A stretch of DNA of 64,000 nt from Podarcis cretensis (Eukaryota), in contig OX638153.1 of NCBI GenBank assembly GCA_951804945.1, forward strand, positions 51,398,001-51,462,000. The letters are read 5' to 3'. Position numbers and translations under genes: made by a program. The notes under the pieces are model-generated. The model was given only the letters and a program-made list of their open reading frames with translations, did not search any database and had not been told where the DNA came from. Each line of letters starts with the position of its first letter. The first letter of the stretch is position 1. This document shows positions 28,200-55,425 of the stretch, piece by piece.

Positions 28200-28541
<342 letters not shown>

Positions 28542-29483: not shown

Positions 29484-29663
29484 TGCTACAAGTCTTCCAA
29501 GGACCAAAATCCCCAGCTGGATGTTAATTTGTTGGGGTGCAGCGTCATCCACAAGGAAAAGAATGTGAGGAAGCAGGAACATAAGCTGAAGATCATCCCC
29601 ATGAACTCAGATGTCATTGTGCTGGGCTTGCAGAGTAAAGACCAGGCAGAGCAGTGGCTCAGG
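29484..29663 (+). CDS. AFAP1L2: AFAP1L2 exon 7 (PH domain 1)
   Basis: tccag|TGC...AGG|gtgagt, 180 nt. Encodes CYKSSKDQNPQLDVNLLG...LGLQSKDQAEQWLR. Confidence 0.97.
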
Positions 29664-30663
29664 GTGAGTGGACCAATCTCTCTTGACAACCTCTGCCATT
29701 GTCCCCAGGCTGTGTGGATTTAATGTGCCCACAGTCATACCATGCTAGCACAGAAGTCAAGATCTGGCCCAGAATTTAACTACTTGAGATTTCGAGACCC
29801 TGCTGAGCTGCTGCTGTTCAGAGCAGAGAGTATTGAACTCAGTGGGCAAAGAGCCTGACTGACCTGGAACAAGGCAGCTTCCTAGGTTTCTGTCTACACA
29901 GGATTATGCTAAAGGATATTTCTCAGGATGTCATGGTGTTGCTCCCATCTCTAGGTTACATCCAAATGCAGCTCTTCCACAAGCGCCTTTATTCTGAGAA
30001 GGATCCTTTCCGTTTGAGCACAACTGAGAAAATCCCTTTTCCCCTTTGCACGTAGGAGGGGGAAGGGGAACTTTCTAACCCAACCCTTCCAGCAGTAATG
30101 AAGGGAGTCTTTCTTCAGTAATTAAGAGCTCAACTCCTTCCTCAGATGGAACTCCATTATAGAAAAGAGAAGAAGTGCCCAACCTCCTTTTGATTATTTT
30201 CTGGGACTTCATCTATGCTTACCAAATTTTACAATAGTAAAATGCGAAAGCTTTGTCAACTCACTTACAAGAAGGGTCTGTCATTATTTCTAGTGAATAT
30301 AATCTTTACTGCATTGAAAAAGTCCCTGAGATGCACTCCCCTTTGTTCTTCCTCTACTACACCCGAATTACACTCAGATGGAATACTGGCCTGATACTCT
30401 AACAGCTCTTTGATCCACAGAAATCAGCTAGGGTCAGTGCAGAATTTTCTAGCATGGAGGTTTCAAGCATTATCATCTGCTAGTATTTTGCAGATAAAGT
30501 TGATATTAAAGGAACATGGAGGGGAAATTGTTTTAAAAAGTTGCCAACTCTACATGGCACATGTGGCATTTCTGCACTGCTGCTTCAGAATCCAGCCTGA
30601 ATTTGCTTGGAATAGTGTTTGATCTGGGCATGCATATTATTTACTTTTGTGCCTTCTTTATAC

Positions 30664-30802
30664 CAGGGATGGGGAACTTGTGCTTCAGTAGATGTTTCTG
30701 GACTGCAGCTTCCATCATCCCTGCCCATTGGCCATGTTGGCTGGGCCAGATGGGAGCAGGGAACCCAATAACCTGTGATGGGCCAGAGGTTCTCCATCCC
30801 TG
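30664..30802. mobile_element. hAT-type palindromic MITE
   Basis: CAGGGATGGGGAAC...GTTCTCCATCCCTG ends, near-TSD CTTTATAC/GTTTATAT. Confidence 0.8.
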
Positions 30803-30998
30803 GTTTATATGGTCATTCGAAGCTACTCTCTCAACCAGAGCTTTTGAGGGACCTCTGCTTCTTTGCATGTTAACGAGAGAGGCTTTCTATGAACTGAGCT
30901 GTGTGTCAGTTAAATGCAGAATGTATACTGTAGAACAGAAAGATATAAATGGCTGCAGGATGAGGTCTTGCTCACAGCTTCTCTCTCTCCCACCATAG

Positions 30999-31088
30999 GT
31001 GATCCAGGAGACAAGCGGTCTCTATCCAGATGGGCAAGGGGAAGGCAACCAGTATGTCCCAGACTCCCAGAGACTTAGCTATCCCAAG
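30999..31088 (+). CDS. AFAP1L2: AFAP1L2 exon 8
   Basis: catag|GTG...AAG|gtatgt, 90 nt. Encodes VIQETSGLYPDGQGEGNQYVPDSQRLSYPK. Confidence 0.93.
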
Positions 31089-31097
31089 GTATGTTTT

Positions 31098-31345
31098 GCT
31101 GTTGTTTAGTCATTTAGTCGTGTCTGACTCTTCGTGACCCCATGGACCAGAGCATGCCAGGCACTCCTGTCTTCCACTGCCTCCCACAGTTTGGTCAAAC
31201 TCATGCTGGTAGCTTCGAGAACACTGTCCAACCATCTCGTTTTCTGTTGTCCCCTTCTCCTTGTGCCCTCCATCTTTCCCAACATCAGGGTCTTTTCCAG
31301 GGAGTCTTCTCTTTTCATGAGGTGGCCAAAGTACTGGAGCCTCAG
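31098..31345 (-). mobile_element. 5'-truncated RTE/BovB LINE 3' end
   Basis: The - strand encodes YFGHLMKREDSLEKTLMLGKMEGTRRRG...WLD...VHGVTKSQTRLND with a (CAA)-type tail; flanked by the duplication AGGTATGTTTT. Confidence 0.93.
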
Positions 31346-32448
31346 GTATGTTTTATCTCTTAACAAAAGTGATGTTCAAAGAGCAGCTTAAATTTTTTCC
31401 TGTTGCGTCAAATTATTTTAAGTTTTAAAAAAATACTTCTGATTAATATACAGGAAGTTACTCCCACCATCAAAACAGGAATGTGGTTGAAACTTACACT
31501 TGAAGAAAACCCAACAAACCACTTGTTTTCTGATTAAAGCACAACTGGCTCAGTGTCAAGCCATTTTTGCATTATTTTAACATCTTTAGCAATTCTTTTA
31601 ATAGCTACTCTCCCCCCCCGCCAAAGTTTGTTTCAAACATAAATCTAATTCTAGGAAGCTTATAGATTTAATCCTGGCCAAATCCAAATGAAAGTATTAT
31701 TTAAATAAGGCTAGAATTTTAGATATCCCTAAAGCATCTGGTGAAACGAGAACTTCTTTGTAGACTGACTGTTCCAGAGTTTCAAGCTCTAATGATATAC
31801 TGAGCGCAAAATTAAAGTCATCAAGCACTGGACCTGATCCAGATAAATTAGGGGTGGGGAAATTGTGACATAAGAAGAGCCTGCTGAACAGGCCAATGGC
31901 TCACCTAGTCCAGCATTCTGTTTCTCACAGCTTGCCACAATGTAAATGAACATGTGCTGATGATGTACAACTGAGGCAGGAGCTATAGATGCGAACGTAA
32001 ACCACAAAGAAACATTCACAGCTAGAAAGCTTCACAGTATATGGCAATGAGGACGGAAAATAAAACCCTCGTGTATAATTTTATTTTTTGAGTTGGCACA
32101 AATATGGTTGCCTGAATTTACTTCAAAAAGCTTTAAAGAAAACACCAGGAGCCATTATGAATAAGGAAGACTGTGTCCAACCAGAGCAACTACACACAGC
32201 AGAACAAAGGGGTTTTCCCAAGAGCTAGAGGAGCCTTTATAGCATCCATCTTTATGGGCCAAATGTTGTTCCCTGTGGAATAATCTTAGTTTGTGAATGG
32301 GTCTTCATTTCCTCAGCTATGGATATGTGCCCCTAATATTCACGAATGCAAAGGCGTTTTCTCATCGGAGAGAGCAGCATTTCAGCCATTACTATGCTGC
32401 TGTTCTATCACTGGTGCTGTGGACCTCATCGCTGCTTCTTGTCTGCAG

Positions 32449-32533
32449 GTGGAGACGTCTGAGAGGTACTCAGTCGCATCAGAAAGCGGAAGCAGCACTG
32501 ATGGTCACACAGAACTGACAGAAACCAAAGATG
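32449..32533 (+). CDS. AFAP1L2: AFAP1L2 exon 9
   Basis: tgcag|GTG...GATG|gtaata, 85 nt. Encodes VETSERYSVASESGSSTDGHTELTETKD. Confidence 0.93.
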
Positions 32534-33086
32534 GTAATAGCCGTTCAAAAAAGATAACGTGGTTGTCGAGTGAAAAGAAGATGGAATAGTGCACTTGCCT
32601 TTGATAAGTCAAACTGAGCTTGCCGGTTGCCTGGTTGTTACTGAATTGACTAGAGCCTTCCTACACATGACATATGAATGGCCCCCACCTGTCCCATCCA
32701 TAAACGACATATTATATGGTTGTAGCTTAATAGCCTGCTGCGTTCGTACCTCTATTCATGGAGAGCCAGGAATCTCCAGGGACTGAAACGAGAACAGCAT
32801 TACGGTACTCTGCCCCTTTTTTGTTTCCACCAGTAGTTGCAGAAGGGAGTTAATGCCTGGCTCATTAAAGTAACACATTTATTCATAACTGATGTGGGTC
32901 ATGTAAGTGTACATTATTAATGCTGCCGCTTATATGAGTCTCTTCTTAAATTGCACCAAGCGAGATTCCGCACACAAACATCAGATGCAAATTGTGTGTA
33001 ATGTGTCTCCTGGCCATTGCATTAGATATTCAGAAGTACAGCTTTGTATATGGCTTGTTTATTCCTTCTTATTTATTTATTTATAG

Positions 33087-33191
33087 TTAAGAAGAAGGGC
33101 ACTTCTGGTTTAAAACTGAGCAACCTGATGAACCTTGGGAGGAAGAAATCTGCCACGCTGGACAGTCCAGAAAGGTCTTTGGATACATGTA
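33087..33191 (+). CDS. AFAP1L2: AFAP1L2 exon 10
   Basis: tatag|TT...TGTA|gtaagc, 105 nt. Encodes VKKKGTSGLKLSNLMNLGRKKSATLDSPERSLDTC. Confidence 0.95.
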
Positions 33192-33314
33192 GTAAGCTAT
33201 CCAAACAAAGCCTTGTGAAACATTTACATTTCATTTGGGTCTCTGCGACTAGCAGGAAAGACCAGCGTAGAGGGTGACCTAGATGTCACTAAGGGAGAGT
33301 CTCCTTCTTTGCAG

Positions 33315-33526
33315 CGTACCTGAATGTCCTTGTGAATAGCCAGTGGAGATCTCGGTGGTGTCATGTGAAAGATGGGCAGCTCCATTTCTACCAGGACAAG
33401 AACAGAAATAAAACTGCTCAGCAGCCTCTCAACCTGACAGGCTGTGAAATTATCCCAGACCCAACTCCTGATCATCTCTACTCATTCCGTATCCTGCATA
33501 ATGGAGAGGAACAGGCCATGTTAGAG
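33315..33526 (+). CDS. AFAP1L2: AFAP1L2 exon 11 (PH domain 2)
   Basis: tgcag|CG...GAG|gtatgg, 212 nt. Encodes YLNVLVNSQWRSRWCHVKDGQLHFYQD...YSFRILHNGEEQAMLE. Confidence 0.97.
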
Positions 33527-35101
33527 GTATGGGTTGCCAATTTCTCTAGAAGTAGGAGTGACATTCGTTTATGAGCAACACAGCTACTCATTGCAACTTA
33601 TTGTAGTGCACACAATTGAATGGTTCAGTCTAGCGAACATAGCTATTGGTGTAGATTTATTTTCTCTTATGTACATAGCCTGTTTGGGGTAATCTGCCAC
33701 ATTCCTGAAGCTGATTTCATTGAGGAGTGTGGAAATATAAGAGAGAGACCTTCCTGTCCCCAATAAGTAAATGTATTGATTTTCTTCACTTTTATTAAAA
33801 AAAAAACCCCATGAAAATTGCTTGTAGACTTCATTCAACACTTCTCCTTACAGCATTATAACCTGCTTTACATGTCATGCTAAGCCAAGGCTTACTGCAG
33901 GCTGCTTGTATATGTTGTCATAAACCATGGTTTAGTGTGACACCTGAATGCAGCCAGTCTGAACAAAATGCTATGCAAAAAGATGTTAAACAGCTAACCA
34001 GGCAGCTTATTTTTATTAAATGAATAGACGTCTATTCTGCTTTTCCATCCAAAGAAACACTCAAGGCAGGAAAGCAGCATTTATTAGTCAGAATAGTAAG
34101 TGAATACTGAATCCCCACCCTGCCCTCTGATTGGAATATTGTACACCTGAAATGTTTTCTGAAATAAGCAGCCAGCTGGATTCAGTATGGGTTGATAAGA
34201 GTAGTTGGTTTTCACCACTGAAAAGAAAGACAAGACTGGTGAAAACAAACACACACAGTGTAACTTTCTTTGGAGCTACCTCCAGTCACCTCAGCTGACA
34301 AGCTGCCTTGGGGGAAAAGAGCAAGCCACTCCTATCCGTAACTTTCACTTGACTTGGATCAGAGTTGTTTTCCTTCTCTGTTTACCTCTAATCTTAGATT
34401 CTCTGACATCAGCACCCTTAGAGTGGGAGAAGGGAAATGTGACACATTTCCTGCATTTTGTAGTGGGAGGAATACTTGCTACCAACAACAGGCTCACTTG
34501 CCAGCGACTGCCAGAGGCTCTGGATGTTGTTTTGTTTAGCACTTAAGATTGCTGAGGTTGATGGAACAAAATAAGAAAGGCTTCAAAAAGTTACTCAGAT
34601 TATCTCAATTTGTGAAGCTAAAGTGCATGTTAGACTCAGCATTTTAGTTAAGGCCAGTTGGAGGTTATAAATAATTTTTCGTGGGTCTTTCAGGGTGATT
34701 GCAGGGTGCTTTCACCATTCATGATGAAAGTTTTAATCATAATTGCTTCTGAGCCAGTTTGGTAGAGGAACTTTAGGAAGGTAAACTGGTGCCCTCTTCT
34801 GGCTTTGTGTGTTTATAATTTTTTATGTGTGTGTGTATATGTATATGTATTTGCCTACACACACACAATCATTTTTTTTAAGACTGTTGAAGATGTTTTT
34901 AGATATTACGATGCATAGAATTTTATTTATTTACTCACATTTCTATCCTGCTCTTCTTTCTCAAGGAGCCCAGGGTGGCACATCCTAAATTGATTTTTCT
35001 TTCCCTTATTTCTGCTTACTCTGATGAAAGCAACTTAGGCTTCTTGTAGTAAGTTTGGCCTATATCCTTAATGATTGTTTTTTTCTTTGGTGGTTTAACA
35101 G

Positions 35102-35247
35102 GCCAAGTCTTGTGATGAAATGGGCCACTGGCTTGGTCTCCTTTTGTCAGAATCTGGCTCAAAAACAGACCCTGAAGAGCTGACCTATGATTATGTCGAT
35201 GCTGACAGGGTCTCCTGCATCGTCAGTGCAGCAAAGAATTCATTACT
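35102..35247 (+). CDS. AFAP1L2: AFAP1L2 exon 12
   Basis: aacag|GCC...CT|gtaagt, 146 nt. Encodes AKSCDEMGHWLGLLLSESGSKTDPEELTYDYVDADRVSCIVSAAKNSL. Confidence 0.96.
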
Positions 35248-35966
35248 GTAAGTTTCTATGGTAGCATATTTGACATTCTGACCTGTCTTCTGATGGATGA
35301 TTTCTAGTAGTTCCTACCAAACAAGTAGCTTTTATCCGAAAAGTATGTAATGAACAGTTTTGATGAGGTTACAATTGCTAGCGGAAAAAAGCAGGAAAGG
35401 GTTCTGATATGTAAATACCCACCATGTTTGCATTCAAATGAAGTATCCACTCATGAGATGGTTGTTGTAAAATATTGCATTGATGGTGACTAGCTCTGGT
35501 AATTGTGTGCAGTCTATCAATCTCTGTTTTTCTTTGAACTCCTAGCTGAATGTTTAAGACATGCAGCACACACACAATGTTGCTTATGGCTTGATGAAAC
35601 CTATGCCTTGTCCTGTGTTAGAGAATGAGTATATTCCAGGCATTTAACATATTCAGTCCCAAACAAAAGGGGAGGTTACACTGTGGTTAGTGGCTTCTTC
35701 ACATTGCAGACCTGTGGGTGCTGGAGACAAGATAGTAGGCAGGAGCAACAGGTGCCTTGCAACATCCAGTGGATGGCAATCAACTAACTTTTACTCAGAG
35801 TAGACCCATTGAAATTAATGGATTTGCTCTGAGTAAATGTTAGTTGACTACTACCCAAAGTAACTGGCATATTAGGAAGTCTTATGGGAGTATAGACTAA
35901 TATCACATCATCGTCTCGTGTAGCTTTTACTTCTTTTGATAGCACATCTGCTTCTATCTTTTCCAG

Positions 35967-36081
35967 CTTAATGCAGAGGAAGTACTCTGAGCCGAACACT
36001 TACATTGACAACTTGCCAAAGGGGAAGGAGGGACTAGAGGAGCTCTATGATGATGTAGATGTTCCAGAGGCAACAACAATG
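35967..36081 (+). CDS. AFAP1L2: AFAP1L2 exon 13
   Basis: tccag|C...ATG|gtgagg, 115 nt. Encodes LMQRKYSEPNTYIDNLPKGKEGLEELYDDVDVPEATTM. Confidence 0.95.
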
Positions 36082-36351
36082 GTGAGGGTTTTGTTTTGTT
36101 GCAATTACAGCTCATGTTGATGGGGGGGGGACGGGACCATTTTGTTTTCCATTGGCTGCAGTTTGTATTGATAATGCCAGAAATAACAAGTGATCCCAAT
36201 TGCAAGGTGTCTGCAATTTGCCTTGTTTCAGGTCTGTACTGTTCTTTAACTGTATGTAATGTTTAAAGAATTTCATGCTGGCCTCTCTTGTTCTAAACAG
36301 AGTGGCATTTCTTGGGCGCTCTTCTAAGAAGATGCTTTTTATCTTTGACAG

Positions 36352-36591
36352 GAGGAAGTGCCCCAAAATGAAGGCAAAGATGAGGGGGATCAGGACAGAG
36401 TCTATCTAGACCTCACGCCAGTCAAATCCTTCCTTCATTGTGCTACCAAGAAGCAGGACCAGTTTTCCCCATCCGTTTCTCCATCATTGCAAAGAGCTTC
36501 CAGTAAGAGCTCAGCGGACTCTGAGAGAGACTCCTCCATCTTGCATAAAGAAGCAGATTTGAGTAGAAGATCACTGGAGATTCCAGACCCG
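36352..36591 (+). CDS. AFAP1L2: AFAP1L2 exon 14
   Basis: gacag|GAG...CCG|gtaatg, 240 nt. Contains DRVYLDLTPVKSFLH. Confidence 0.9.
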
Positions 36592-36978
36592 GTAATGCTC
36601 AAAACCAAATCCGAGATATCAAGGAGGGGCCATAGCTCAGTGGTAGAGCATCACATGCAGATGACCGCAGGTTCAATCCCCACCATCTCTAGCTAAAGGC
36701 CTCAGGTGTACGAGAGGCACTGCCAGTCAGGCCAGATGCTAGGGAAGTTTTTAATGTTTGATATTTTACTGTTTGATGTTTTAATTTGTTGGAAACTGCC
36801 CAAAGTAGGTGGGGCAATGCAGTCAGATTGGTGGCATATAATTTTTATGATTTATTCTATAACTAGACAAAACTTAGCATTGAGCAGCTTGCTGGGATCA
36901 TAAATGGACAGCCAGCTTCTGCTAGCCTTCTGTTGCTTAACCTCTGAAACCTTCTCTCTCATCCGACATCCCTAACAG

Positions 36979-37147
36979 AGGACTCAAGACATTGATGAGC
37001 CGCTCCCACCACGAACAACAACCATCAAAATTCAGGCACAACAGCAGCAAATTGCCTTTCCTCAGAGTGGCCCTGAGATTAAGGACACCACCACAATTAT
37101 GATTGCATCCAAAGAGAAAATGGAACGCTCCAAGGTGGTGAATTCAG
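36979..37147 (+). CDS. AFAP1L2: AFAP1L2 exon 15
   Basis: aacag|AGG...TCAG|gtgtgt, 169 nt. Contains RTTTIKIQAQQQQIAFPQS. Confidence 0.85.
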
Positions 37148-37350
37148 GTGTGTTTGCTGTCTGCAGTAATCTCTCTTTACCCAACAGCTTCATGACGGAG
37201 ACTTATGGTAGAGGCAGTGGCTGCTATCATTAGCTTTTCAGCCCATGTTTAAAACATGGCGCTAGTGTATTTAGCTGCTGGTTTAAAGGGAAAGTTCTTG
37301 GAATTTCAGTCTCTGTCCCTGAGCTTAATTTCTTCATCTTTTATTTGTAG

Positions 37351-37515
37351 CAGCTGTAGAAACCAAACTCGGCAAGAACAGGACTGAGGCTGAAGTGAAG
37401 CGATACTCGGAAGAAAGAGATCGCTTGGAGAGGGAAAAAGAAGAAATCCGCTCTCAGCTGGCACAGCTACGGAAAGACAGAAGGGAGCTGAAAGAGATGC
37501 TGATAAGCTGCACAG
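37351..37515 (+). CDS. AFAP1L2: AFAP1L2 exon 16 (coiled coil); tandem NAGNAG acceptor, alternative start at 37354
   Basis: tgtag|cag| acceptor, ACAG|gtaaac donor. Encodes AVETKLGKNRTEAEVKRYSEERDRLEREKEEIRSQLAQLRKDRRELKE. Confidence 0.93.
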
Positions 37516-37774
37516 GTAAACAAATGCCTCTCATTTCCACTTCATTTTCAGAGATCAGTGGAACGGGGCATATTGTTTTGGTCTCATGTGCTCCATTGAC
37601 ATGTAATCTGCTCTGAAAAGCCTCCACTTTAGGTGCGGGGGGAGGGCTAGTTCAGCAGCCACCCTCTTGTCTGCCACCATCATCTGAGGAGACAGACAGA
37701 CAGGCAATAGGGAAGAGTACACACTGCCCATCTACTGTTGGATTTCCACTTGCATGTGCTTCTTTCCTCGGCAG

Positions 37775-37968
37775 ACAAGAGCCTTTTGCCCACACTGGAG
37801 CAAAAACTGAAGGAAATAGAGGAGGAGTGCAAAAGGAAAGAAGATCAGCGCGTGGACTTGGAGCTGAGCCTCGTGGAGGTGAAGGAGAATCTCCGGAAAG
37901 CAGAGTCTGGGCCTGTAACACTTGGCACTGCGGTGGACACCACGCACCTGGAGAACGCAAGCCCTAAA
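37775..37968 (+). CDS. AFAP1L2: AFAP1L2 exon 17 (coiled coil)
   Basis: ggcag|AC...AAA|gtacgt, 194 nt. Encodes [19 protein letters not shown]...[20 protein letters not shown]. Confidence 0.95.
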
Positions 37969-38930
37969 GTACGTAGGGGGCTGTTTATAATCAGCATTGT
38001 TAGCAGAGTCGTTTTCAGCAAAGCGAAGTAGCTGAAGCCAGCAGCTGGTTCAAACTACGCATGATGCAGAAGATCCATGATTGCATTTTTTGATGTGTTT
38101 TGTAAAGCTCAAAAGGCAATTTGGTGGGTGGGCAGGGGGCTCAAAATAGCAGCACTGAGGAAGGAGGGGCTTAATGCTTTTCTCCCACACTATTTTCCTA
38201 GCCAGAATTGCACATGACCACCCTTGGAGGCTGGTAATAGCTATATGGATGCCTGTGTCTCCCAACAGCTAGGCCTAAATAGCATGTGAGGTTGACTGAT
38301 ACCTCAGTCATGATACCCCAAGGAGCCATACTGTCACGGAACCATAGATCCAATCACAGCACGTATGAGGAACGTTGTTCAGTTTGAGGAATACAGCTAG
38401 ACTTACAGACTGCCACATAGCTATGAGTTTTATGCGTTGCCATCAGGAGCAGCTGCCGAGCCCATCTCCTGCCACTCGTGTCACTGCCATGTCCTGGGAC
38501 AGTCTTTGGGTGGAGCCAATTGTCAGCGCAGTCAGGGCTATGTGGGTTCCACTTGGTGGGTGTACCAGATTGCCTTTGCCAAAGCACCCCATGGAGCTCT
38601 GACCTTGCCACTGCTCTGCCCCACCTTGTCCTGATATGCCGCAGTGCTGGAGTTGAGAGGGTGGCTTATAAATGTAGGACCTCATTGGCCCTTCCTGATA
38701 ACAACAGATAAAGCAACATAATTAAAACCAAAAGCATAAAGTCGATAAACAGCGCCCAGAGGTAGATCTAACAAGCCATTAATAAACAGCACTTTTAATC
38801 CTGATGCTTTGTGATGATGGAATATGAGATCTTTAATGTTCGGCAAGAAGGGCTCTCTGACCTGTGCCTGATGAACTATTTTAGACAATTGTGTATGACC
38901 ACAGCTATTATCTTGCCCCCATAAACACAG

Positions 38931-42593: not shown

Positions 42594-43256
42594 ATGGATG
42601 TCAGGGGTTCAGGGAGAGAGGCGCAGAGGAGGGAGGAGACCGAGAGTGAGGGAGAAGGATTCCAGCCTGACGAGGAAGAGGACGACAATGACCCGAGGTG
42701 GTCCATGAGTCCGTCCAGTGAATCGGAGGATTCCCAAAAGGGAGCCCCCCTGGTCAAGCCAAGGGGAGCCCAAGGGGGAAGCAGTCAGGAGCAGGGGAAC
42801 GTAGGGGGAACCGCCAGTGGGAGTTGGAGATCGAGACCTGCTTCTCCACCGGAACGGAGTGAAGAGGGTGGAGTTACCAGTGTGTCGGGAGGAACAGAAC
42901 AAGGAGCAGAGGGGGGAAGGAGATCGGGGCAAGACGCCCTGCCGGAAGGGGCGGAAAGCAGTACCGGGAGCAGTGTGGCTGTTGAAAGGAAGGTCAGGAG
43001 CAACGTACGCGCGCCAAGTTCAAATGTGGAGGCGCGCGGAAGTGGGGAGAGCTCTGGGGAGGAGCCTGGTGCTAAAGCACGAAGGAGGGGGCAGCAGGCA
43101 GGAGAAGACTCAGCCTCTGGGGAGTCCCGGAAAGAGGGAACACAGGGGGGCAGGAAGACCCTGCGGAAAAGGAAGGAGAGGAAAAGGTGGAGCAGCACAA
43201 GCCTCTTAAATTGGTGCAGGGGAGGGACGGACTCAGAGGGGACTTCTAACATCTAA
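42594..43256 (+). CDS. LTR-encoded 220-aa ORF (intact copy of the Pol C-terminal extension)
   Basis: ATG GAT GTC...ATC TAA with no stops. Same frame and sequence as the Pol tail in the 3' LTR up to the duplication. Acidic N-part, S/G/E-rich middle, basic RKTLRKRKERKRW. Independent translation is not shown. Confidence 0.55.
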   Translation: MDVRGSGREAQRREETESEGEGFQPDEEEDDNDPRWSMSPSSESEDSQKGAPLVKPRGAQGGSSQEQGNVGGTASGSWRSRPASPPERSEEGGVTSVSGGTEQGAEGGRRSGQDALPEGAESSTGSSVAVERKVRSNVRAPSSNVEARGSGESSGEEPGAKARRRGQQAGEDSASGESRKEGTQGGRKTLRKRKERKRWSSTSLLNWCRGGTDSEGTSNI

Positions 43257-43382
43257 GGGTAACAGATGTGGAGCCACGGAGTTTGGATGTAATGACGACA
43301 ATGATCTTCAATAAAACCTTTTGTATATAACTTGGACTGGATTATGGTCTCTTGTGAGCTGGGACCCAGGGTGGCTCTGACA
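42599..43382 (+). repeat. 5' LTR (784 bp)
   Basis: TG...CA ends with 6-bp terminal inverted repeat; AATAAA at 43310-43315; direct repeat of 48345-49141. Confidence 0.97.
43205..43245 (+). promoter_or_regulatory. Putative LTR core promoter and transcript 5' end (self-primer)
   Basis: TATA-like CTTAAA (43205-43210) lies about 30 nt before an Inr-like TCAG (A at 43235). This is followed by GAGGGGACTT (43236-43245), which is complementary to the PBS. Confidence 0.6.
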
Positions 43383-43384
43383 GT

Positions 43385-43394
43385 AAGTCCCCTC
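43385..43394 (+). promoter_or_regulatory. Self-priming primer-binding site
   Basis: AAGTCCCCTC, 2 nt after the LTR end, lacks the TGG of a tRNA PBS and is the exact reverse complement of 43236-43245. Confidence 0.75.
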
Positions 43395-43444
43395 CAAAGA
43401 ACGCAAAAATTTTTTTTTTGCAAAGCTCACGAACGGTGACAGCC

Positions 43445-44521
43445 ATGAGTGCGGAGGAGCAGTTGACAGCTCTGCGAACTACAGTTTCCGAACTCACTGC
43501 TGCAGTCCTTGCGTCTCAGAAGAAGCATGACGAAATGGAGAAGCGCTGCCAGGACCTGCAAACCAGGTGGGAACGTGCAAGCAGGGAAGGGTTCCCAGGG
43601 TCCAGATCAGAAGGGATTGGACTTGGACGGAGGGGGGGCAGCCTAGTCACCCACTTCGATGGGAACCTGAAGCACTACCCCAGTTTCAGAGCAGACGTTT
43701 TGTATGCATTGCACTTGCTTCGTCATGACTTTAAAGATGAGGAGGAGAAAGTGGGGTTTATTGTTTCTCACTTGCATGGGCCGGCCAGAGACTGGTTGCG
43801 TAATTTGTGGCGTGAAGATGGCCCTGCCCGCCGCGATGCAGATGAATTCATTAAAGCAATGGATGCCTGCTTCCAGTCAACTGTAGATGTGGATCTTGCA
43901 CGCAGGGAAATTTTTGGATTGCGGCAAGGCAAAGCCACTGTGCGTCAGTACCATTCCAGATTTTTTGCTTTACTGACTGCGCTAAGCTGGGAGAAGGATT
44001 GTGCACCTGTGAGGGATTTGTTCTGGGAGGGGCTCAGCGGTCCCATTAAGGATGAACTTGCCAGGGGAGACAGACCCCAGACCCTGGAGGAGCTTGTGCA
44101 GAGGGCTTTGGCGATTGGGATAAGGCACGAGGGACGTCCTTGGCACACTGAGGAAGAACGTCAGGTGCGTCCACCAGCGAGGACGTCTTCTTTCATCCCC
44201 AGGGAGTTCAGTCAGTCACATCCTTCGCCACTGGGAAGGCAGGGGGAGGAGCCCATGGAACTTGGTGGTGCTAAGGCTCAAGCAACAGCCAGAGCCCCAG
44301 CTTCCGGTGCAGTAAAGGCACAGCCTCCTAGAGGGACCAGGAAGTGTTACATTTGCGACAGTGCACAGCACATGGCGAAAGAGTGTCCCCAGAGGCTGCA
44401 GAAACACACTGCAGCTTTAGCAACTGTTGCAGCAGAAATGATGCAAGCAGAGCAACCTCAGGGAAACGACAGTGCCTGGCTGGAAGCAGAGCTGCTGGGG
44501 CTCAGCCAGGCGAATCTGTAG
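43445..44521 (+). CDS. gag: Retrotransposon Gag (358 aa)
   Basis: gccATGa start, N-terminal coiled-coil-like heptads, capsid region with QGKATVRQYHSRF, EPMELG motif, CCHC knuckle CYICDSAQHMAKEC. Confidence 0.95.
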   Translation: MSAEEQLTALRTTVSELTAAVLASQKKHDEMEKRCQDLQTRWERASREGFPGSRSEGIGLGRRGGSLVTHFDGNLKHYPSFRADVLYALHLLRHDFKDEEEKVGFIVSHLHGPARDWLRNLWREDGPARRDADEFIKAMDACFQSTVDVDLARREIFGLRQGKATVRQYHSRFFALLTALSWEKDCAPVRDLFWEGLSGPIKDELARGDRPQTLEELVQRALAIGIRHEGRPWHTEEERQVRPPARTSSFIPREFSQSHPSPLGRQGEEPMELGGAKAQATARAPASGAVKAQPPRGTRKCYICDSAQHMAKECPQRLQKHTAALATVAAEMMQAEQPQGNDSAWLEAELLGLSQANL

Positions 44522-44534
44522 AGCAGTCCCCAGC
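44461..44534 (+). promoter_or_regulatory. -1 programmed ribosomal frameshift signal (slippery site plus H-type pseudoknot)
   Basis: G GGA AAC (44461-44467) in the gag frame, 6-nt spacer, stem 1 GCCTGGCTG/CAGCCAGGC (44474-82/44503-11), stem 2 GCTGGGG/CCCCAGC (44494-500/44528-34). pol is in the -1 frame. Confidence 0.9.
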
Positions 44535-47500
44535 GCTTTTGCAACGCACAGACCCTTTACCACCCAAGCCAGCGGTGCAGCTCACTGCAACACTTCAGTT
44601 GCCGAATGGAACCACCCTGGAAGTCCCCATCACGATTGATTCTGGGAGCAACGCAGATTTTGTGGGGACGCACTTTGTCAAGCAGCATCGCATAGCGCTT
44701 CTGCCAGCGACAACACCTCTGAACGTAGTCACGGTGGATGGCAGGAAATTGCTAGGAGGACAAGTTGTGCAACAGACGCCTCCCATGGTGATGAGGATTG
44801 GAAATCATCGAGAAGTCATCAGCTTCAATGTCACCCGCCTTTCAGACACGCCTATAGTATTAGGCATGAGTTGGCTGGAGAGACACAGTCCTGCTGTAGC
44901 GTGGTACCAACGGCAGATCACCTTTTGCTCATCGTACTGTGCTCAACATTGCATCCAGTCCAGCCAGGAGGAGGGAGCTGAGCAGCAGTTGCAACTTGGC
45001 ATGGTGCAGGCAGTACCCCGCAAGTACGAGGGGTTCCTGGAGGTTTTCTGCGAGAAGGAAGCTGACCAGTTGCCGCCCCACAGGCCTTATGATTGTGCCA
45101 TCGACCTGGTGCCAGGGGCGCAGTTGCCGACTGCAAAGCTGTATTCCATGTCTGAGGACGAGATGCAAGAACTCAGGGAGTTCATAGAGCACAATTTGAA
45201 GCGCGGATTCATCCGAGAATCGAAAGCGGTGGGGGGCAGTCCTGTTTTCTTTGTAAAGAAAAAGGACACGCCCCAAAAAAGACTCATTGTGGACTATCGA
45301 TTCATAAACAGTAAGACCAAACCCAAGGCCTTCCCCATGCCCAAGATAGATGATCTCCTGGCAACCGTAAGGAAGGGGAAGATCTTCACCAAATTGGATC
45401 TGCGTGGAGCGTATAACCTCATACGCATCCGGGAGGGCGATGAGTGGAAGACGGCCATGTTCACGCCTCTGGGCACGTACGAATACAGAGTGATGCCATT
45501 TGGTCTCCAAAATGGATCTCACGTCTTTCAAGCATTTATGCATCACGTGCTAGCGGGACTTCTCTACAAGAAATGCGTGTGTTTCCTCGACGACATCCTG
45601 ATCTTTTCGGAAACGGAGGAGGCCCATGAGAAGGACGTAAAGGAAGTCCTGCAGAGACTACGGGAGAACAAGCTCTACGCCAAGTTAGAGAAGTGCCAGT
45701 TTGATGTGACGGAAGTGGATTTCCTAGGCTACAAGCTGTCCGACAAGGGGCTGGCCATGGACAGCGCCAAGGTCCGCGCGGTGTTGGACTGGAAGAGCCC
45801 TCGCAATCGGAAGGAAGTCCAAAGATTCATCGGCTTCGCCAACTTCTACCGCAAATTCATCAGAGGTTTTGCAAAGGAGACGGCAGCGATCACGGACACT
45901 CTCAGTTCCAAGAAAAAGAGGTTCGTGTGGACGGAACAGGCGGAGCGCTCTTTTCAGAAGCTTAAAAGCCTTTTCGCCTCCGAGGAGCAGCTGCTGCACG
46001 TGAATCCAGGCAAGCCCATACGAGTAGAGACCGACGCGTCAGACAGAGCGGTTGGAGCCGTACTCCTGCAAGAAGATCCACATGGAAACTGGAGACCCGG
46101 TGCCTTTTACTCCAGAAAGCTCAGCAAAGCGGAGCAAAACTACACCATATGGGACAGGGAGCTGTTAGCCATTCACGCAGCGTTCAAAGCGTGGCGACAT
46201 TTCCTCATTGGAGCCAAGCACACAGTGCAGGTCCGCACGGATCACAAGAATTTAGAGTATTGGCGCACGGCGAAACTCCAGAGCCAAAGACACATGCGCT
46301 GGGCAGAGTTCTTCGCGGATTTCGACTTCAGGATAGAGTACGTCCCAGGGGACTCCAACGTTATAGCCGATGCGCTCTCCAGGAAACCGCAATATCTTGA
46401 GGAAGCGGCGCCAATAGCAGCCAGGCACATTTTTGCACCGCAGGCGTGGGCGTGCGCTGCCATCGCTGTCGACCTGGACGCAGTGCGACGCGCGTTGCAG
46501 GTAGATCAGTTTGCACAATCCAAAATAGAGGAGCTGCGTAGGGGTTCGCTGAGAGACGATGAGTTCCAGTTACGCGACGGACTGTTAACTCACAAGGGTG
46601 CCCTCTACGTGCCGAGCGACGAGCTCCGAGCAAAGGTTCTGCAGCAGTTGCACGACGCTCCCAGTGCGGGCCATTTCGGCAGGGAGAAGACAATAGAACT
46701 GGTGGCCAGGGACTTTTGGTGGCCCCAGATGCGAGGAGAAGTAGCGGAGTACGTCGCCAGATGTGACACTTGTCAGAGGTCCAAGCCAGTACACCAGAAG
46801 CCGGCGGGCTTACTGGAACCACTGGAAACACCACAGCAACCGTGGGAGAGGGTGGCGCTGGACTTCGTCACTGACCTGCCCAGTTCCAGAGGCAAGACAG
46901 CGGTACTGGTGGTGGTGGACTTGTTCACCAAGATGGCGCACTTCATTCCCTGCGCGAAGGTGGCGACGGCGGAACAGACCGCCAAGCTCTTCATCGACCA
47001 CGTGTTCCGGGCGCATGGGCTGCCGCGGGCCATCCTGTCCGACAGGGGGCGCCAGTTTATTTCCAATTTTTGGCAGAAGCTCCTAGGTATCCTGCGCGTC
47101 AAGATCAACCTAGCGTCGGCAAGACATCCACAAACCAACGGCCAGGCCGAGAGGGTCAACGCGATCATGCAGCAGTACCTGAGATGTTATGCAAATCAGC
47201 GACCCACAGCTTGGGTGGACTACCTACCGATGGCGGAGTTTGCCTACAACAACACGAAGCATGCGTCGACGGGGGTGACGCCGTTCTTCGCGAACAATGG
47301 ACGTCATCCCAGGACCTTCCCGGGGTTCGTAGCACCAAGAGAGGGGGAGCCGCAAGAGGCCGACCAGTTCGCTGCAGAACTACAAGAGGTGCACGAGGAG
47401 CTGCGGAGACATTTGGAGCTAGCCAAACAAGCATATAAGGTGCAGGCAGACAAAGGCAGAAGAGTGGGAGAGGACATCCAGGTGGGGGACTGGGTGTGGT

Positions 47501-48744
47501 TAGCGGCCCAGGCGATGCCAACCAAGTCGTTGGCCAAGAAGAAGCTAGGGCACAGGCAGCTAGGACCATACCAGGTGGAGGCTAAGATCAACCCCGTGGC
47601 TTTTCGACTGGCCCTCCCCGAAGGTTCCAGAGTCCACCCGGTTTTTCATAAGTCGGTGCTCACTCCCTACAAGGCCCCGCACAGGTTTCAGGAGTCTGAA
47701 ACAGTACCGCAGCCACGCACAGAGTCACCTAGGAGGGAGGGATCGCCTAGGGTCGAACCACTCAACGAGGTCACAGAGATCCTGGACTCGAGATGGGGGG
47801 AAGAGGGAATAGAATACTTTCTAGTCAGAGAGGGTGCACCAGTCAGTGCCAGTGGGTGGGTGCCGGACTACGCTTTAGACGAACCTCTTTTAAAGGACGA
47901 GTTCCATGCCCTTTTCCCACATAGACCCATGCCAGCCGAGTACTTCGATGACTGGCTCTTTACCCCCACATGTTCAGGCAGCACTTTCCACGGCTTTTCT
48001 TCAGCCGAGGAAAGAACGCCGAACTCAAACTCGCCCAGGGGATCGTGTTCGGGGGTGGACACAGAGCCCTCTTATTGGTGGGATGAGCAACCAGAGGAAG
48101 CCTGGCGCAAGAAATGGCTGAAGGGGCCTTGGCCGGCAGCACCAGACGAAGTAGCAATGGAAGAGGGAACTGCGAACATTTTGGGTGAAGAACCCGAATT
48201 CGAACACACGTACACCGAGCTGCCAGCAGAGGTCACGGACGTAGCCGAACTGTATCCTGCATCTACCTCCGAGGAGCTGCAGTTTCCACAACCCGCACCC
48301 GATGGGGGGGAGGGGGGAAGGGGGGGCTTCGAGGGGGGGATGGATGTCAGGGGTTCAGGGAGAGAGGCGCAGAGGAGGGAGGAGACCGAGAGTGAGGGAG
48401 AAGGATTCCAGCCTGACGAGGAAGAGGACGACAATGACCCGAGGTGGTCCATGAGTCCGTCCAGTGAATCGGAGGATTCCCAAAAGGGAGCCCCCCTGGT
48501 CAAGCCAAGGGGAGCCCAAGGGGGAAGCAGTCAGGAGCAGGGGAACGTAGGGGGAACCGCCAGTGGGAGTTGGAGATCGAGACCTGCTTCTCCACCGGAA
48601 CGGAGTGAAGAGGGTGGAGTTACCAGTGTGTCGGGAGGAACAGAACAAGGAGCAGAGGGGGGAAGGAGATCGGGGCAGGAGATCGGGGCAAGACGCCCTG
48701 CCGGAAGGGGCGGAAAGCAGTACCGGGAGCAGTGTGGCTGTTGA
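44467..48744 (+). CDS. pol: Retrotransposon Pol (PR-RT-RNaseH-IN-chromodomain plus an extension into the LTR), expressed as Gag-Pol
   Basis: Protease IDSGS; RT KLDLRGAY, MPFGL, FLDDILIFS; RNase H TDAS, DRELLA, TDHKNL, ADALSR; integrase HHCC, LDFVTDLP, SDRGRQF, HPQTNGQAERVN, GPY; chromo-like EVTEILDSR. No internal stops; the frame runs 400 nt into the 3' LTR. Confidence 0.96.
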   Translation, partial: RQCLAGSRAAGAQPGESVEQSPALLQRTDPLPPKPAVQLTATLQLPNGTTLEVPITIDSGSNADFVGTHFVKQHRIALLPATTPLNVVTVDGRKLLGGQVVQQTPPMVMRIGNHREVISFNVTRLSDTPIVLGMSWLERHSPAVAWYQRQITFCSSYCAQHCIQSSQEEGAEQQLQLGMVQAVPRKYEGFLEVFCEKEADQLPPHRPYDCAIDLVPGAQLPTAKLYSMSEDEMQELREFIEHNLKRGFIRESKAVGGSPVFFVKKKDTPQKRLIVDYRFINSKTKPKAFPMPKIDDLLATVRKGKIFTKLDLRGAYNLIRIREGDEWKTAMFTPLGTYEYRVMPFGLQNGSHVFQAFMHHVLAGLLYKKCVCFLDDILIFSETEEAHEKDVKEVLQRLRENKLYAKLEKCQFDVTEVDFLGYKLSDKGLAMDSAKVRAVLDWKSPRNRKEVQRFIGFANFYRKFIRGFAKETAAITDTLSSKKKRFVWTEQAERSFQKLKSLFASEEQLLHVNPGKPIRVETDASDRAVGAVLLQEDPHGNWRPGAFYSRKLSKAEQNYTIWDRELLAIHAAFKAWRHFLIGAKHTVQVRTDHKNLEYWRTAKLQSQRHMRWAEFFADFDFRIEYVPGDSNVIADALSRKPQYLEEAAPIAARHIFAPQAWACAAIAVDLDAVRRALQVDQFAQSKIEELRRGSLRDDEFQLRDGLLTHKGALYVPSDELRAKVLQQLHDAPSAGHFGREKTIELVARDFWWPQMRGEVAEYVARCDTCQRSKPVHQKPAGLLEPLETPQQPWERVALDFVTDLPSSRGKTAVLVVVDLFTKMAHFIPCAKVATAEQTAKLFIDHVFRAHGLPRAILSDRGRQFISNFWQKLLGILRVKINLASARHPQTNGQAERVNAIMQQYLRCYANQRPTAWVDYLPMAEFAYNNTKHASTGVTPFFANNGRHPRTFPGFVAPREGEPQEADQFAAELQEVHEELRRHLELAKQAYKVQADKGRRVGEDIQVGDWVWLAAQAMPTKSLAKKKLGHRQLGPYQVEAKINPVAFRLALPEGSRVHPVFHKSVLTPYKAPHRFQESETVPQPRTESPRREGSPRVEPLNEVTEILDSRWGEEGIEYFLVREGAPVSASGWVPDYALDEPLLKDEFHALFPHRPMPAEYFDDWLFTPTCSGSTFHGFSSAEERTPNSNSPRGSCSGVDTEPSYWWDEQPEEAWRKKWLKGPWPAAPDEVAMEEGTANILGEEPEFEHTYTELPAEVTDVAELYPASTSEELQFPQPAPDGGEGGRGGFEGGMDVRGSGREAQRREETESEGEGFQPDEEEDDNDPRWSMSPSSESEDSQKGAPLVKPRGAQGGSSQEQGNVGGTASGSWRSRPASPPERSEEGGVTSVSGGTEQGAEGGRRSGQEIGARRPAGRGGKQYREQCGC
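48301..48344 (+). promoter_or_regulatory. Polypurine tract region
   Basis: G-runs ending GAGGGGGGGATGGA immediately before the 3' LTR TG; translated in the pol frame as DGGEGGRGGFEGGM. Confidence 0.9.
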
Positions 48745-49141
48745 AAGGAAGGTCAGGAGCAACGTACGCGCGCCAAGTTCAAATGTGGAGGCGCGCGGAA
48801 GTGGGGAGAGCTCTGGGGAGGAGCCTGGTGCTAAAGCACGAAGGAGGGGGCAGCAGGCAGGAGAAGACTCAGCCTCTGGGGAGTCCCGGAAAGAGGGAAC
48901 ACAGGGGGGCAGGAAGACCCTGCGGAAAAGGAAGGAGAGGAAAAGGTGGAGCAGCACAAGCCTCTTAAATTGGTGCAGGGGAGGGACGGACTCAGAGGGG
49001 ACTTCTAACATCTAAGGGTAACAGATGTGGAGCCACGGAGTTTGGATGTAATGACGACAATGATCTTCAATAAAACCTTTTGTATATAACTTGGACTGGA
49101 TTATGGTCTCTTGTGAGCTGGGACCCAGGGTGGCTCTGACA
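48345..49141 (+). repeat. 3' LTR (797 bp, with tandem duplication AGGAGATCGGGGC at 48664-48689)
   Basis: Direct repeat of the 5' LTR, preceded by a polypurine tract. Confidence 0.97.
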
Positions 49142-51785: not shown

Positions 51786-52941
51786 CTATATTAAAAATAA
51801 AGAATGATTGTTTCCCAGAGCAAACAGTCAAATATGGTTTTCCTACATACAAAAATAAAACATGAATTTTAAATGAAGCCTTTTCATTTTTCCAACAGGT
51901 TGAAATGAGGCCTACAAATGAGTCTGTAGCTCTGTAGTGAAGTTGCTTCACTTAGTCCATTGACAACCTAGCAGGGACCGAAAAGGTCAACTTCAGCTAT
52001 ATATCAGTTAACTCTTTCATCATTAAGACTATCCATATTATGGCTCCTCCCAACACCCAAAGATTTCACAAGTATATTTTCCAATGAGGTAAGGTCTTGT
52101 TTGCACTACCGATTATTAAGGTTTCTTCAGCAAACAAGTTCCATTTATCATGCTTCTAGCAATTTAGTAATACAACGCAGGGAATATTGCAAGGGGTAAG
52201 TTATGAGATCAAAAAGGAATCCCAGAAAACAATGACGTTTTTACAGATAAAGATATGTGGGAGTGGAAGCAAATATGTGAGTATTCTTCTCTTTTGGTAT
52301 TTGGTCTCAAGCATCCTAAAGGATGTCAGGGGCACCTTGACTGGTGGATGCAACCTGCTTTGTGAGGTTGGTGTCATCTGTGCAGCAAGAAGGACATGCT
52401 CAAAGCGCCAACCTCATAGGAAGACAATTGTAGGCCTCCTCCTATGCTTTCTGATCCTTCCAAATAGGTCAATGCAGAAAAGAGGCAAAGCACATGCAGA
52501 GCGCCTCTTGTTCAGCAAAACAAATACAGTGCGCACTACATGCTAGGTTGTTCTGCTTTTGCTGTAACAAGCTGACTCTTTTGGAATGAGATCCAACAAG
52601 ATCTTAGTGAAAGAGTGTGCCAATTAAACCTAAGAAATATATGGGTTTAAGAAGATTGCAGTGAGTCATTTAAGATTAGTATTTGTGAAGAGAACAAGCC
52701 AAAAGTACATTTACCAGTCAACCGTAAAATTTGATAATATGAAGCTTGTTTAATTTCCCCACCCTCCCTTTTTCAGCATACTTTTAGGAATGTGATCTAA
52801 ATGAAAATGAATTGACTTTATCTGGGGCAAAGGTACGGAGCAAGTGGATTCTTCAGGGATCATTTGTTTCAGATGGAGACAATGAATCTAAATGAGGGAG
52901 GAGGCCTAAATGCCTTTTGGCTACTGTACTTTGATGCTTAC

Positions 52942-53064
52942 TGTTTTCACAGTGAGGTCCTACCCAGCCTTGGCACCGACACCAGTAGCTGCCATTTCCA
53001 GAAACACAAACTCCATCATTCATGCAGGGGTTGGGTTTGCAGACGTTTGCTGGCTTCTTGGCCT
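52942..53064 (-). CDS. VWA2: VWA2 exon (EGF-like domain 2)
   Basis: tgcag|AG...AACA|gtaagc, 123 nt. Encodes AKKPANVCKPNPCMNDGVCVSGNGSYWCRCQGWVGPHCEN. Confidence 0.95.
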
Positions 53065-54392
53065 CTGCAACAGACAAAAGAAAACAACAAGTCATGTTGA
53101 CTGGCAGGCGCAAGAAGAAAGAAAGAAATCTAAGCTTTCTTAATGCCGCAGGATTCCAGTTGTTCTGTGGAGATGGAAATCAGTGAACACATCTCCTGGT
53201 ACTGCAGAAACGCCTTACAGCCTTAGAAGAGGGAAAGTCTCACACCTAGGACAAAGCTATACATTGAGTGCATTACTTAAATTTCACACAGCCAAAATCA
53301 CAGCTGAAACTTTTTTGCTGGAATTAGGGATGCCAGCATCCTGCTCCAGAACTTTCTACAGACCCTCCTCAACTCACAATTACTGTTCCTGGTCCCCATT
53401 TGTGCCATCACATGCCCTTCCTTCACACACAGGATCTGACAGTACATCACCTTACCAATCATTAAATAAATGACTAAGCTGCAGCTCTTCAAAGACTACA
53501 AGTTCAGTCTCATCTTGAGTTGTTTTGTAAACAAAGCACACTAGCCCGTGAAAGACCAGCTAGTCCTTTTGCCATTTACCACAAGCAAGCCCTGTTTGAT
53601 GTGTTAAGAATACGCACTAATCTTGGATGAACAATGGCTTAAAAGGTGAAACAGATAATCAGACACATGGCAAATACTGATTTGAAGATGGTTTAAACTA
53701 AACACGAAGGGTAAGAAGTGTTTAATGTGGCTTCTTTTCAACTTCAACGAAGGGGGGGTTAGGCATATGTGGTTGTTAGGTAGTGCTGAAGCATAGATCT
53801 TATTTTTCTTCTTCTTTTTCTCAGAAGTATGCTTACATCAGAAAAGGTAGCCCTGAAATCCATTGGCATTTCAAATTCAAGAACTAAATATGGCTCAAGT
53901 TTGGAAATGTCCAGACTAGCACTGTAATTTTATTGCACTGATGTTTCAAGTAATGTACTTTACTGGTACTTGATATGTACAATGCACTTCTAATTCACTG
54001 TAAATTGATATTTAGCCAGCCCCTTCGGACACTTGATATTGGTGATAAACCAAGAAACAAATGTGAATTCTAAAAAATAATAATATATGATTTATTATGA
54101 TAGAAGTGACAAGCCTGTAGTCCTTCCAGATGTTAAGACTCCAACTCCCATCACCCTGAACCATCACAAATTGAATACTGGGAGCTGTAGCCCAATAACA
54201 TCTGGAAGATTGCAGGTTAGCAACCCATGGCTTATGGGCATATGCAGGGGGAAAAGGGCTGGCTCCAGGTTACACTGGGCAAAGGGTTATGCAAAATAAT
54301 AATAAAATGAAGGAAGGTATTAATAAAGAAATGTGGTTTTATTCTATTCATTGTAGACAGATACAACCCTAAAGTCAAAATAATCATCTTAC

Positions 54393-54944
54393 CATCACAT
54401 ATTCTTTCAAGGATAAGTTCTTCATTATTTTTTAGCTCTTCATAGGAAGGAATCCTCAAGAGATTATTGTGAGAACCTGCAATCCTCAGTAATGAGCTCA
54501 CTTGAACTTGTTCCAACCCAATAACCAGTAGCGATACATCATTATTACGTAGCTGTTGAGCTGGGACAACGGCATCCTCCACTCCAGCTCCACTTGTGAC
54601 CACCACCACAATCTTCTTCACACCAGGCCTCGCTCCTTTTTGGACAGTCATGAGATCGTCATAAATATGGAGCAAGGAGCTGCCAACTGAGGCAGAGCCA
54701 CCTACAAAGGGAGCTTGACTGATGGCTTCATGGAGATCTGAGCTGGTCACGTGTGTCTCCAGCCCAAACGTGGTGTGAGGCCTTTTCCCAAAGACAACAA
54801 GGCCTACCTGAGTCACATCCCGATTGATGTCAAATTGGAGAGAGAGGCTGCTGACAAAGGTTTTCAGCTGCACAAAGTTATTTCTTCCAACAGAAGCTGA
54901 AGAGTCCAAAGCAAATACCAAGTCCATAGACTGAGATGGGCAGC
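54393..54944 (-). CDS. VWA2: VWA2 exon (VWA domain 3)
   Basis: cttag|GC...GATG|gtaaga, 552 nt. Encodes CPSQSMDLVFALDSSASVGRNNF...VMTVQKGARPGV-like segment...ILERICD. Confidence 0.96.
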
Positions 54945-55425
54945 CTAAGGAAGGAAGGAAGAAAGGAAGGAGCAGCATTAAGCTTCTGAGAACATGGCTC
55001 AATAGTCTGAATAGCTGGAAGGCATCTAAAACACAGTCAAATGAAAGGGAATGGTATTTGCATAAGGTCATATAGACATTAGTTTGGGCTAAATTTAGAA
55101 AGGCAGGAGTCTTAGAACAGCAGATTTCTTTCGAATTGTAAAAATTAAACGGCACTGAGCAAGCAGTAAGGTGAGGCAAAGCCAGTGCTAGAATATTGGA
55201 TCACATTCAAGTTCCTGCTTGGTTCTGAGGCTCACCAAGGTGAGCTTGGACCAGCGACCACCACTCAGTCTAACCTACCTCACAGGGCTGTTGTTAGAAT
55301 TAAAATGTATGCCAGCCTGAAGCCACTGAAGGAAGGGAGGGAGAAAAATTTAACAAATATCAGAATAAACCCAACATTTAGTTCATTTCTAAATAGCTCA
55401 GTCAAACTAAAACAATCTTCTAAAT

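Follow-up and report, generated by a model that had tools for sequence, protein, structure and literature searches.

The window analysed here is a 64,000-nucleotide stretch of the Podarcis cretensis genome. Positions 42599-49141 of the window are occupied by an LTR retrotransposon carrying the hallmarks of Ty3/gypsy elements: TG..CA LTRs, a polypurine tract, a 5-bp target-site duplication (TSD) in the family, the PR-RT-RH-IN domain order and no env. The interval 43205-43394 is the R-U5/PBS region of this very young, chromovirus-like element (Table 1). CTTAAA, TCAG, both 10-mers and both helix arms were all found where the initial annotation had placed them. The neighbours are an AFAP1L2-like gene, recognised by eye (28000-38000, + strand), and, on the other side of the element, exons with VWA and EGF domains (VWA2-like; 52850-55200, - strand).

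Table 1. Features of the element, in window coordinates.
Feature	Position	Strand	Basis or remark
5' LTR, 784 bp, TGTCAG...CTGACA	42599..43382	+	border set by flanks at 29/30 family loci
TATA-like CTTAAA	43205..43210	+	30 nt 5' of inferred +1
TCAG (Inr-like)	43233	+	motif located in sequence
Inferred RNA 5' end and self-primer	43235..43245	+	PBS complement, covariation, T+C PBS variants
GAGGGGACTT, 5' partner of PBS	43236-45	+	motif located in sequence
Predicted R hairpin ACATCT/AGATGT, telomere-like loop GGGTAAC	43249..43269	+	fold
Second helix, 5' arm GAGCCAC	43271..43277	+	fold; compensatory in family B
Poly(A) signal AATAAA	43310..43315	+	sequence
Second helix, 3' (U5) arm GTGGCTC	43371..43377	+	fold; compensatory in family B
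PBS AAGTCCCCTC	43385..43394	+	2 nt (GT) past LTR end
C and variable bases after PBS; C probably templated by the cap, the later bases probably added without template	43395..43398	+	copy comparison, RT behaviour
gag: Retrotrans_gag, Ty3_capsid; CCHC motif by eye	43445..44521	+	
pol, -1 frame: PR-RT-RH-IN-SH3, degenerate chromodomain, long acidic tail reading into U3	44332..48744	+	
Slippery GGGAAAC for pol -1 frame	44461	+	
Polypurine tract	48331..48344	+	
3' LTR, 797 bp	48345..49141	+	13-bp duplication vs 5' LTR

The genome searched comprises 1.5 Gb in 51 contigs, 19 of them large (C1-C19). We refer to the family of the window element as family A, to its sister family in the same genome as family B and to a more distant one, also in this genome, as family C. 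Family B is 65-70% identical to A in the LTR and 77-82% in Pol, and family C about 55% in Pol. The initial annotation had described the window copy as apparently intact. It lacks a matching TSD (ATGGA on the left, ATTGC on the right), a duplication being found in 41 of the 43 dispersed family A copies, and the last part of its Pol frame is thrown off course by the 13-bp duplication of the 3' LTR, giving 1470 aa where 33 of 40 dispersed copies have 1556 aa. The copy is therefore not fully intact. No empty allele was seen when one was looked for at this locus. All three copies without a matching TSD (the window copy, L161 and L186) have GGA or ATGGA to the left of the 5' LTR; these are PPT-end letters (42594-42598 in the window copy), and as far as sequence goes they suggest that a U3 end was joined aberrantly, without having been processed.

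The proteins most similar to those of the element carry the label Podarcis muralis (95% in RT-RH). An RT-RH tree, computed with IN excluded and without a sushi-ichi or Tf1 reference element, places the element among vertebrate chromodomain-bearing elements of fish, amphibians and squamates, together with fungal ones; the single plant row and the single algal row fall elsewhere. The vertebrate Tf1/sushi "V-clade" (sushi-ichi, Amn-ichi/ni/san) was reportedly treated by Butler et al. in 2001. The LTR termini match the Sushi motifs TGTYANR and CNTNACA (PMC3601003). Unlike the vertebrate Tf1/sushi group, however, the element has a degenerate chromodomain, a long acidic IN tail across U3 and a preference for telomere repeats. 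The Pfam Chromo profile scores below its cut-off at the IN C-terminus (E 0.1, 13 bits), and this region aligns with the chromodomains of relatives, minus their aromatic residues. Tf1/Tf2 of S. pombe and Tj1 of S. japonicus are self-priming chromoviruses; the lizard element differs in its -1 frameshift and CCHC Gag, and its RT-RH is only 38% identical to a fungal Tf2-like match. Moreover, integration is directed to promoters in Tf1 and to Pol III genes in Tj1, whereas family A lies mostly in TTAGGG repeats.

The U3 segment (42599-43256) is wholly an open frame, which extends Pol in most copies and stops just past the self-primer. The acidic tail of IN reads through U3 and has a basic end just past that primer. 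Families B and C have the same U3 open frame, with a basic ...LLxW end across the TATA box. An FxGF motif in acidic or serine-rich context follows the chromodomain (47960-48000 in the window) in families A, B (L131, L132) and C and in squamate relatives. It was counted in 10 squamate tails; 12 of 18 long tails (P0001-P0038) matched, 2 of these inside RT. The motif resembles the LEDGF IBD-binding motifs shown in the accessible part of PMC11740969.

Tf1 is known to prime reverse transcription with its own RNA, and self-priming has been proposed for its vertebrate relatives in the available text of PMC6317226, PMC4600332 and PMC7175516. An architecture of this type, independent of tRNA, was the central proposal of the initial annotation, and our comparisons uphold it. 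The 10-mers GAGGGGACTT and AAGTCCCCTC are perfectly complementary at the two sites claimed for them. Among 4934 internal 10-mers, five are perfectly complementary to some site in the LTR, and none to a site inside 43225-43256. Pair probabilities of 0.89-1.0 were predicted for both helices. The folding energy of the whole region is ordinary (z = -0.88), so that support rests on covariation and not on energy.

Covariation of the two 10-mers across related families, a test set beforehand, was observed. PBS-bearing copies of family A number 365 genome-wide. For family B, 35 rows were aligned and 34 used, the 5' site of L118 not having been located. Positions +2 to +11 are perfectly paired in 31 of these 34 copies, one of the others having a G-U pair and two being mismatched; changes occur on both sides at +5, +7 and +8, and a compensatory difference separates A from B at +4. 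When PBSs were shuffled among B copies (10,000 shuffles, a test that ignores kinship among copies), a mean of 12.9 and a maximum of 23 were perfect. Family C adds two further sequence types, with 7 of 10 copies perfect over 11 nt, one carrying a G-U pair and two mismatched. In all, eight perfectly paired types of 5' site and PBS occur across the three families.

The second R-U5 helix of the initial annotation is likewise borne out: in family B all seven pairs form in 34 of 35 copies (6 with a G-U), and two pairs are compensatory between B and A. The spacing of CTTAAA is the same in family B, and family C has a T-rich box about 32 nt upstream. For Tf1 a third, "pretzel" duplex is described in the portion of bioRxiv 2022.12.06.519325 that is available. 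Such a duplex is not established for the lizard element: in family A 203 of 500 shuffles were as good, with 51-180 of 500 in B and 3, 13 and 326 of 500 in C.

A PBS that binds the end of a host tRNA, a tRNA half or another small RNA, the LTR match being incidental, is exceedingly improbable. The tRNA set compared with the PBS was partial (28 distinct calls and 11 isotypes, with 2 spurious long-intron calls), which leaves some room for such a primer. Within this set, however, the longest match to a real tRNA is 6 nt and the PBS lacks a TGG start, in line with the claimed tRNA-independence, and a host primer would be unable to co-vary with the LTR in eight sequence types. Self-priming of the family thus appears well supported from sequence comparison, and the first 10-11 nt of the RNA likely prime copying in place of a tRNA. 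The mechanism is a known one, of which this family is a new, well-evidenced member.

The bases that follow the PBS carry a further mark. A C lies directly 3' of the complementary stretch in 35 of 35 family B copies, 10 of 10 family C copies and 98 of 100 family A copies among the matches listed, the other two lacking it. Pairing with genomic position -1 would require G, not C. After this C the columns of family B are hypervariable (1.5-1.85 bits, with indels), and in family A the four bases past the PBS vary in 16 of the 100 listed copies; the window copy reads CAAA. Seven of the 100 gain a T that pairs with A43235, and in all seven C comes next. According to PMC6885630, when reverse transcriptase of the MMLV type copies across an m7G cap, the first base added is almost always C; one of the products shown there is +CAA.

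The C and the hypervariable bases after it point to a +1 at A43235 or G43236, and the spacing of the TATA-like and Inr-like motifs gives this start some indirect support. We infer from this cap-like C that the RNA starts at 43235/43236, with a self-primer that is 10 nt long if it begins at G43236 and 11 nt long if it begins at A43235. As in Tf1, the first 10-11 nt would then pair with the PBS with the assistance of the R/U5 helix, and RNase H would cut just past the primer. DNA synthesis would begin 2 nt outside the CA end of the LTR, and the capped self-primer would likely be retained on the minus strand. By the title of a 2006 paper by Atwood-Moore, the Tf1 primer is reportedly not removed. 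Plus-strand synthesis would read the primer, then the cap, giving C, then untemplated bases, and each cycle would overwrite the PBS from the RNA 5' end. On this simplest reading, the copying of a capped self-primer in every cycle would account both for the covariation and for the mark of +1. No description of a cap signature for such elements was found in the literature searched. The signature locates an RNA start from DNA alone, and the same test is applicable to any LTR family.

The initial annotation did not mention a target preference. A first sign of one came from the first 30 related loci, about half of which had telomere repeats at their flanks. Genome-wide, 240 LTR starts (136 + 104) and 225 LTR ends, two of the latter from family B, adjoin TTAGGG repeats. 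Subtracting the 365 PBS copies from 736 LTRs gives about 371 insertions for family A, so that about 223-240 of ~371, or 60-65%, are telomeric. Of the 240 starts, 126 lie on small unplaced contigs and are possibly haplotype duplicates; the 114 junctions on the 19 large contigs, taken alone, give a share of 47%, and the dispersed share is accordingly about 35-53%. Such junctions are carried by 18 of the 19 large contigs. Perfect (TTAGGG)n makes up about 0.35 Mb, or 0.023% of the assembly, but several contigs end inside an element, and the true length of terminal repeats is therefore not given by the assembly.

Telomeric copies lie in both orientations, and 198 of 200 listed starts share one phase of the repeat, with the TSD GTTAG/CTAAC. 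At the two ends examined (C6:1-81 kb and C13:57.58-57.67 Mb), about 80 kb each is mostly elements: 6.5-kb copies occur there along with solo LTRs and deleted forms, in either orientation, and between them lie spacers of 18-3330 bp of repeats. One of six independent runs (X4) shows telomere repeats at both LTR ends, and none of the other five does among the matches listed. TERT RNA-binding-domain exons are present in the genome.

Several further features of the arrays were recorded. An internally deleted form, presumably non-autonomous, joins internal positions 1-1190 to about 3399-4962 and recurs in several arrays (C6:9391-12134; C13:57628170-57630914; C3:121936741-121939488). One nested insertion lies at the telomere-like R-hairpin loop of a C13 copy. 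Family A is also found in degenerate TTAGGG-like arrays (C3:121.83-121.955 Mb, C2:4.615-4.65 Mb and C9:78.82-78.875 Mb) that lie 3-5 Mb from contig ends, a placement that may be a scaffolding error. These arrays show orientation flips, one of them at an N gap.

The telomeric copies look like independent products of integrase. Of 21 array elements, 19 carry the same LTR sequence at both ends, and between elements the median is 3-5 LTR differences, identical 5' LTRs occurring in only 1 of 100 within-array pairs from two arrays; this comparison kept the duplicates L007 and L020, which repeat C6 and C13 array copies. In an LTR tree telomeric and dispersed copies are mixed (13 changes against 13.8 when shuffled, with bootstrap support unsettled). 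Untargeted insertion, with a few telomeric copies then multiplied by recombination, break-induced replication or assembly duplication, is quite unlikely in the light of these figures. Half of the telomeric junctions do sit on unplaced contigs, some telomeric LTRs, including those of neighbours, are mutually identical, and the orientation flip at an N gap fits such multiplication. However, the copies occur in either orientation, and every one has a duplication of its own in the phase that integrase prefers; identity is far commoner within elements than between them, there is no telomeric clade, and the share on the large contigs alone is still close to half.

Local sequence preference was derived from a matrix of 41 non-telomeric sites, the 2 of 43 copies lacking a TSD being left out. 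GTTAG is the best of the six repeat phases in this matrix, in 1000 of 1000 bootstraps, and the phase therefore reflects the ordinary preference of the integrase. As 4.6% of random positions score as high as GTTAG, a preference for sequence would be expected to place about 0.08% of insertions in telomere repeats. The share actually seen exceeds this about 700-fold, or 70-fold should true telomeres be 10 times their assembled length. Local sequence preference accounts for the phase but not for the enrichment. Random insertion followed by purifying selection that purged most non-telomeric copies is very improbable as a source of the excess. Telomere arrays are, by general knowledge, gene-free safe havens, but selection of this kind would have to remove about 99.8% of insertions, although the LTR pairs of 39 of 43 dispersed family A copies are identical, and thousands of dispersed B LTRs remain.

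Most copies of family A lie in TTAGGG, likely through a tether between the integration complex and the chromatin of telomere repeats, a reading by analogy with Ty5. In Saccharomyces an integrase-protein tether guides this LTR element towards telomeric regions, and the exact site depends on local features, according to the available parts of PMC4700185 and PMC7175516. In the lizard, the ordinary local preference of the integrase would set the GTTAG phase, and the enrichment would come from a Ty5-like tether between the IN C-terminal region and telomere-bound proteins. We assign a probability of roughly 0.75 to the joint reading, in which the family primes with its own capped 5' end and its integration complex is tethered to telomere repeats. 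There are differences from Ty5, a Ty1/copia element of yeast that is led to Sir4 silent chromatin near telomeres; in those same partial sources a fixed repeat phase is not described.

Among rival explanations the main one is a general preference for chromosome ends or end chromatin (nuclear envelope, meiotic bouquet, heterochromatin), common to family B, with only the youngest wave still visible in TTAGGG. Family B clusters near ends: of its 60 listed PBS copies on C1, 30 are no more than 1 Mb from an end. Its tail is homologous to that of A, and family A also occurs in degenerate repeats. Any telomeric insertions of family B, on average the older family, could have been erased by telomere turnover. 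However, only 2 telomeric junctions are found among at least 4154 B LTR ends (5' LTR ends included), and young B copies, with LTR pairs 99.9-100% identical, are interstitial. The family A arrays 3-5 Mb from contig ends, if correctly scaffolded, and the feeble match of the chromodomain to its profile also speak against a general end preference, which we consider unlikely, if less so than the other alternatives.

Some arrangements of family B were noted separately. It is densely nested in subtelomeres just inside A arrays (C1:140.6-141.6 Mb, C1:1-0.36 Mb, C2:0.11-0.17 Mb and C6:82-100 kb). At L085 (C1:about 216.5 kb) a B LTR is broken off in R and runs straight into telomere repeats, like a healed break. 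B LTR starts also recur at a constant position in local repeats (C2:16.2-17.7 Mb and C1:141.1-141.2 Mb), which reflects either preferred targets or later duplication.

For the tether itself, a candidate by analogy is the IN C-terminal region, which comprises the degenerate chromodomain and the long acidic tail. A search for an A-specific targeting motif there found none, the acidic tail, FxGF and an HxLxP-like word all being common to family B. The HxLxP word, which we take to be TRFH-binding-like, was rejected as an A-specific determinant: it sits in the chromodomain helix and is also present in family B. AlphaFold prediction for the 424 C-terminal residues of IN gave a mean pLDDT of 38 and no confident fold.

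The invaders of telomere repeats named in the accessible text of two reviews (PMC10088271, PMC12857005) are non-LTR elements, including Tx1-1_ACar of the green anole. TRAS/SART, MoTeR/FoTeR, Zepp and Tx1-1_ACar likewise form element arrays mixed with telomerase repeats, in one case in a squamate. As far as those descriptions go, they are endonuclease-primed and usually lie in one orientation, whereas family A is an integrase-based LTR element with both orientations, 5-bp duplications and about 40% of its copies dispersed. Neither endonuclease priming nor confinement to telomeres, which mark telomere-specific non-LTR elements, applies to family A. No LTR element targeting telomere repeats was among the literature matches listed; the search did not reach subscription journals or Repbase Reports, so that an earlier description may exist.

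For a retrovirus-like element in a vertebrate, placing most insertions into TTAGGG would be unusual, and an integrase that does so would, if the reading is true, represent a new targeting specificity. In the sources available to us self-priming of vertebrate Tf1/sushi elements has so far been predicted, and the hundreds of young copies found here supply compensatory variation. Chances seem about even that a vertebrate LTR element has recently gained an integrase tether to shelterin-bound TTAGGG and is turning lizard chromosome ends into arrays despite the presence of TERT exons, with family B as a natural control and with copies that record cap-copying self-priming. The composition of these lizard telomeres is altered, which matters for telomere-length assays and for the assembly of chromosome ends. 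Finally, the finding bears on the origin of telomere-retrotransposon arrays in a lineage that still has TERT.
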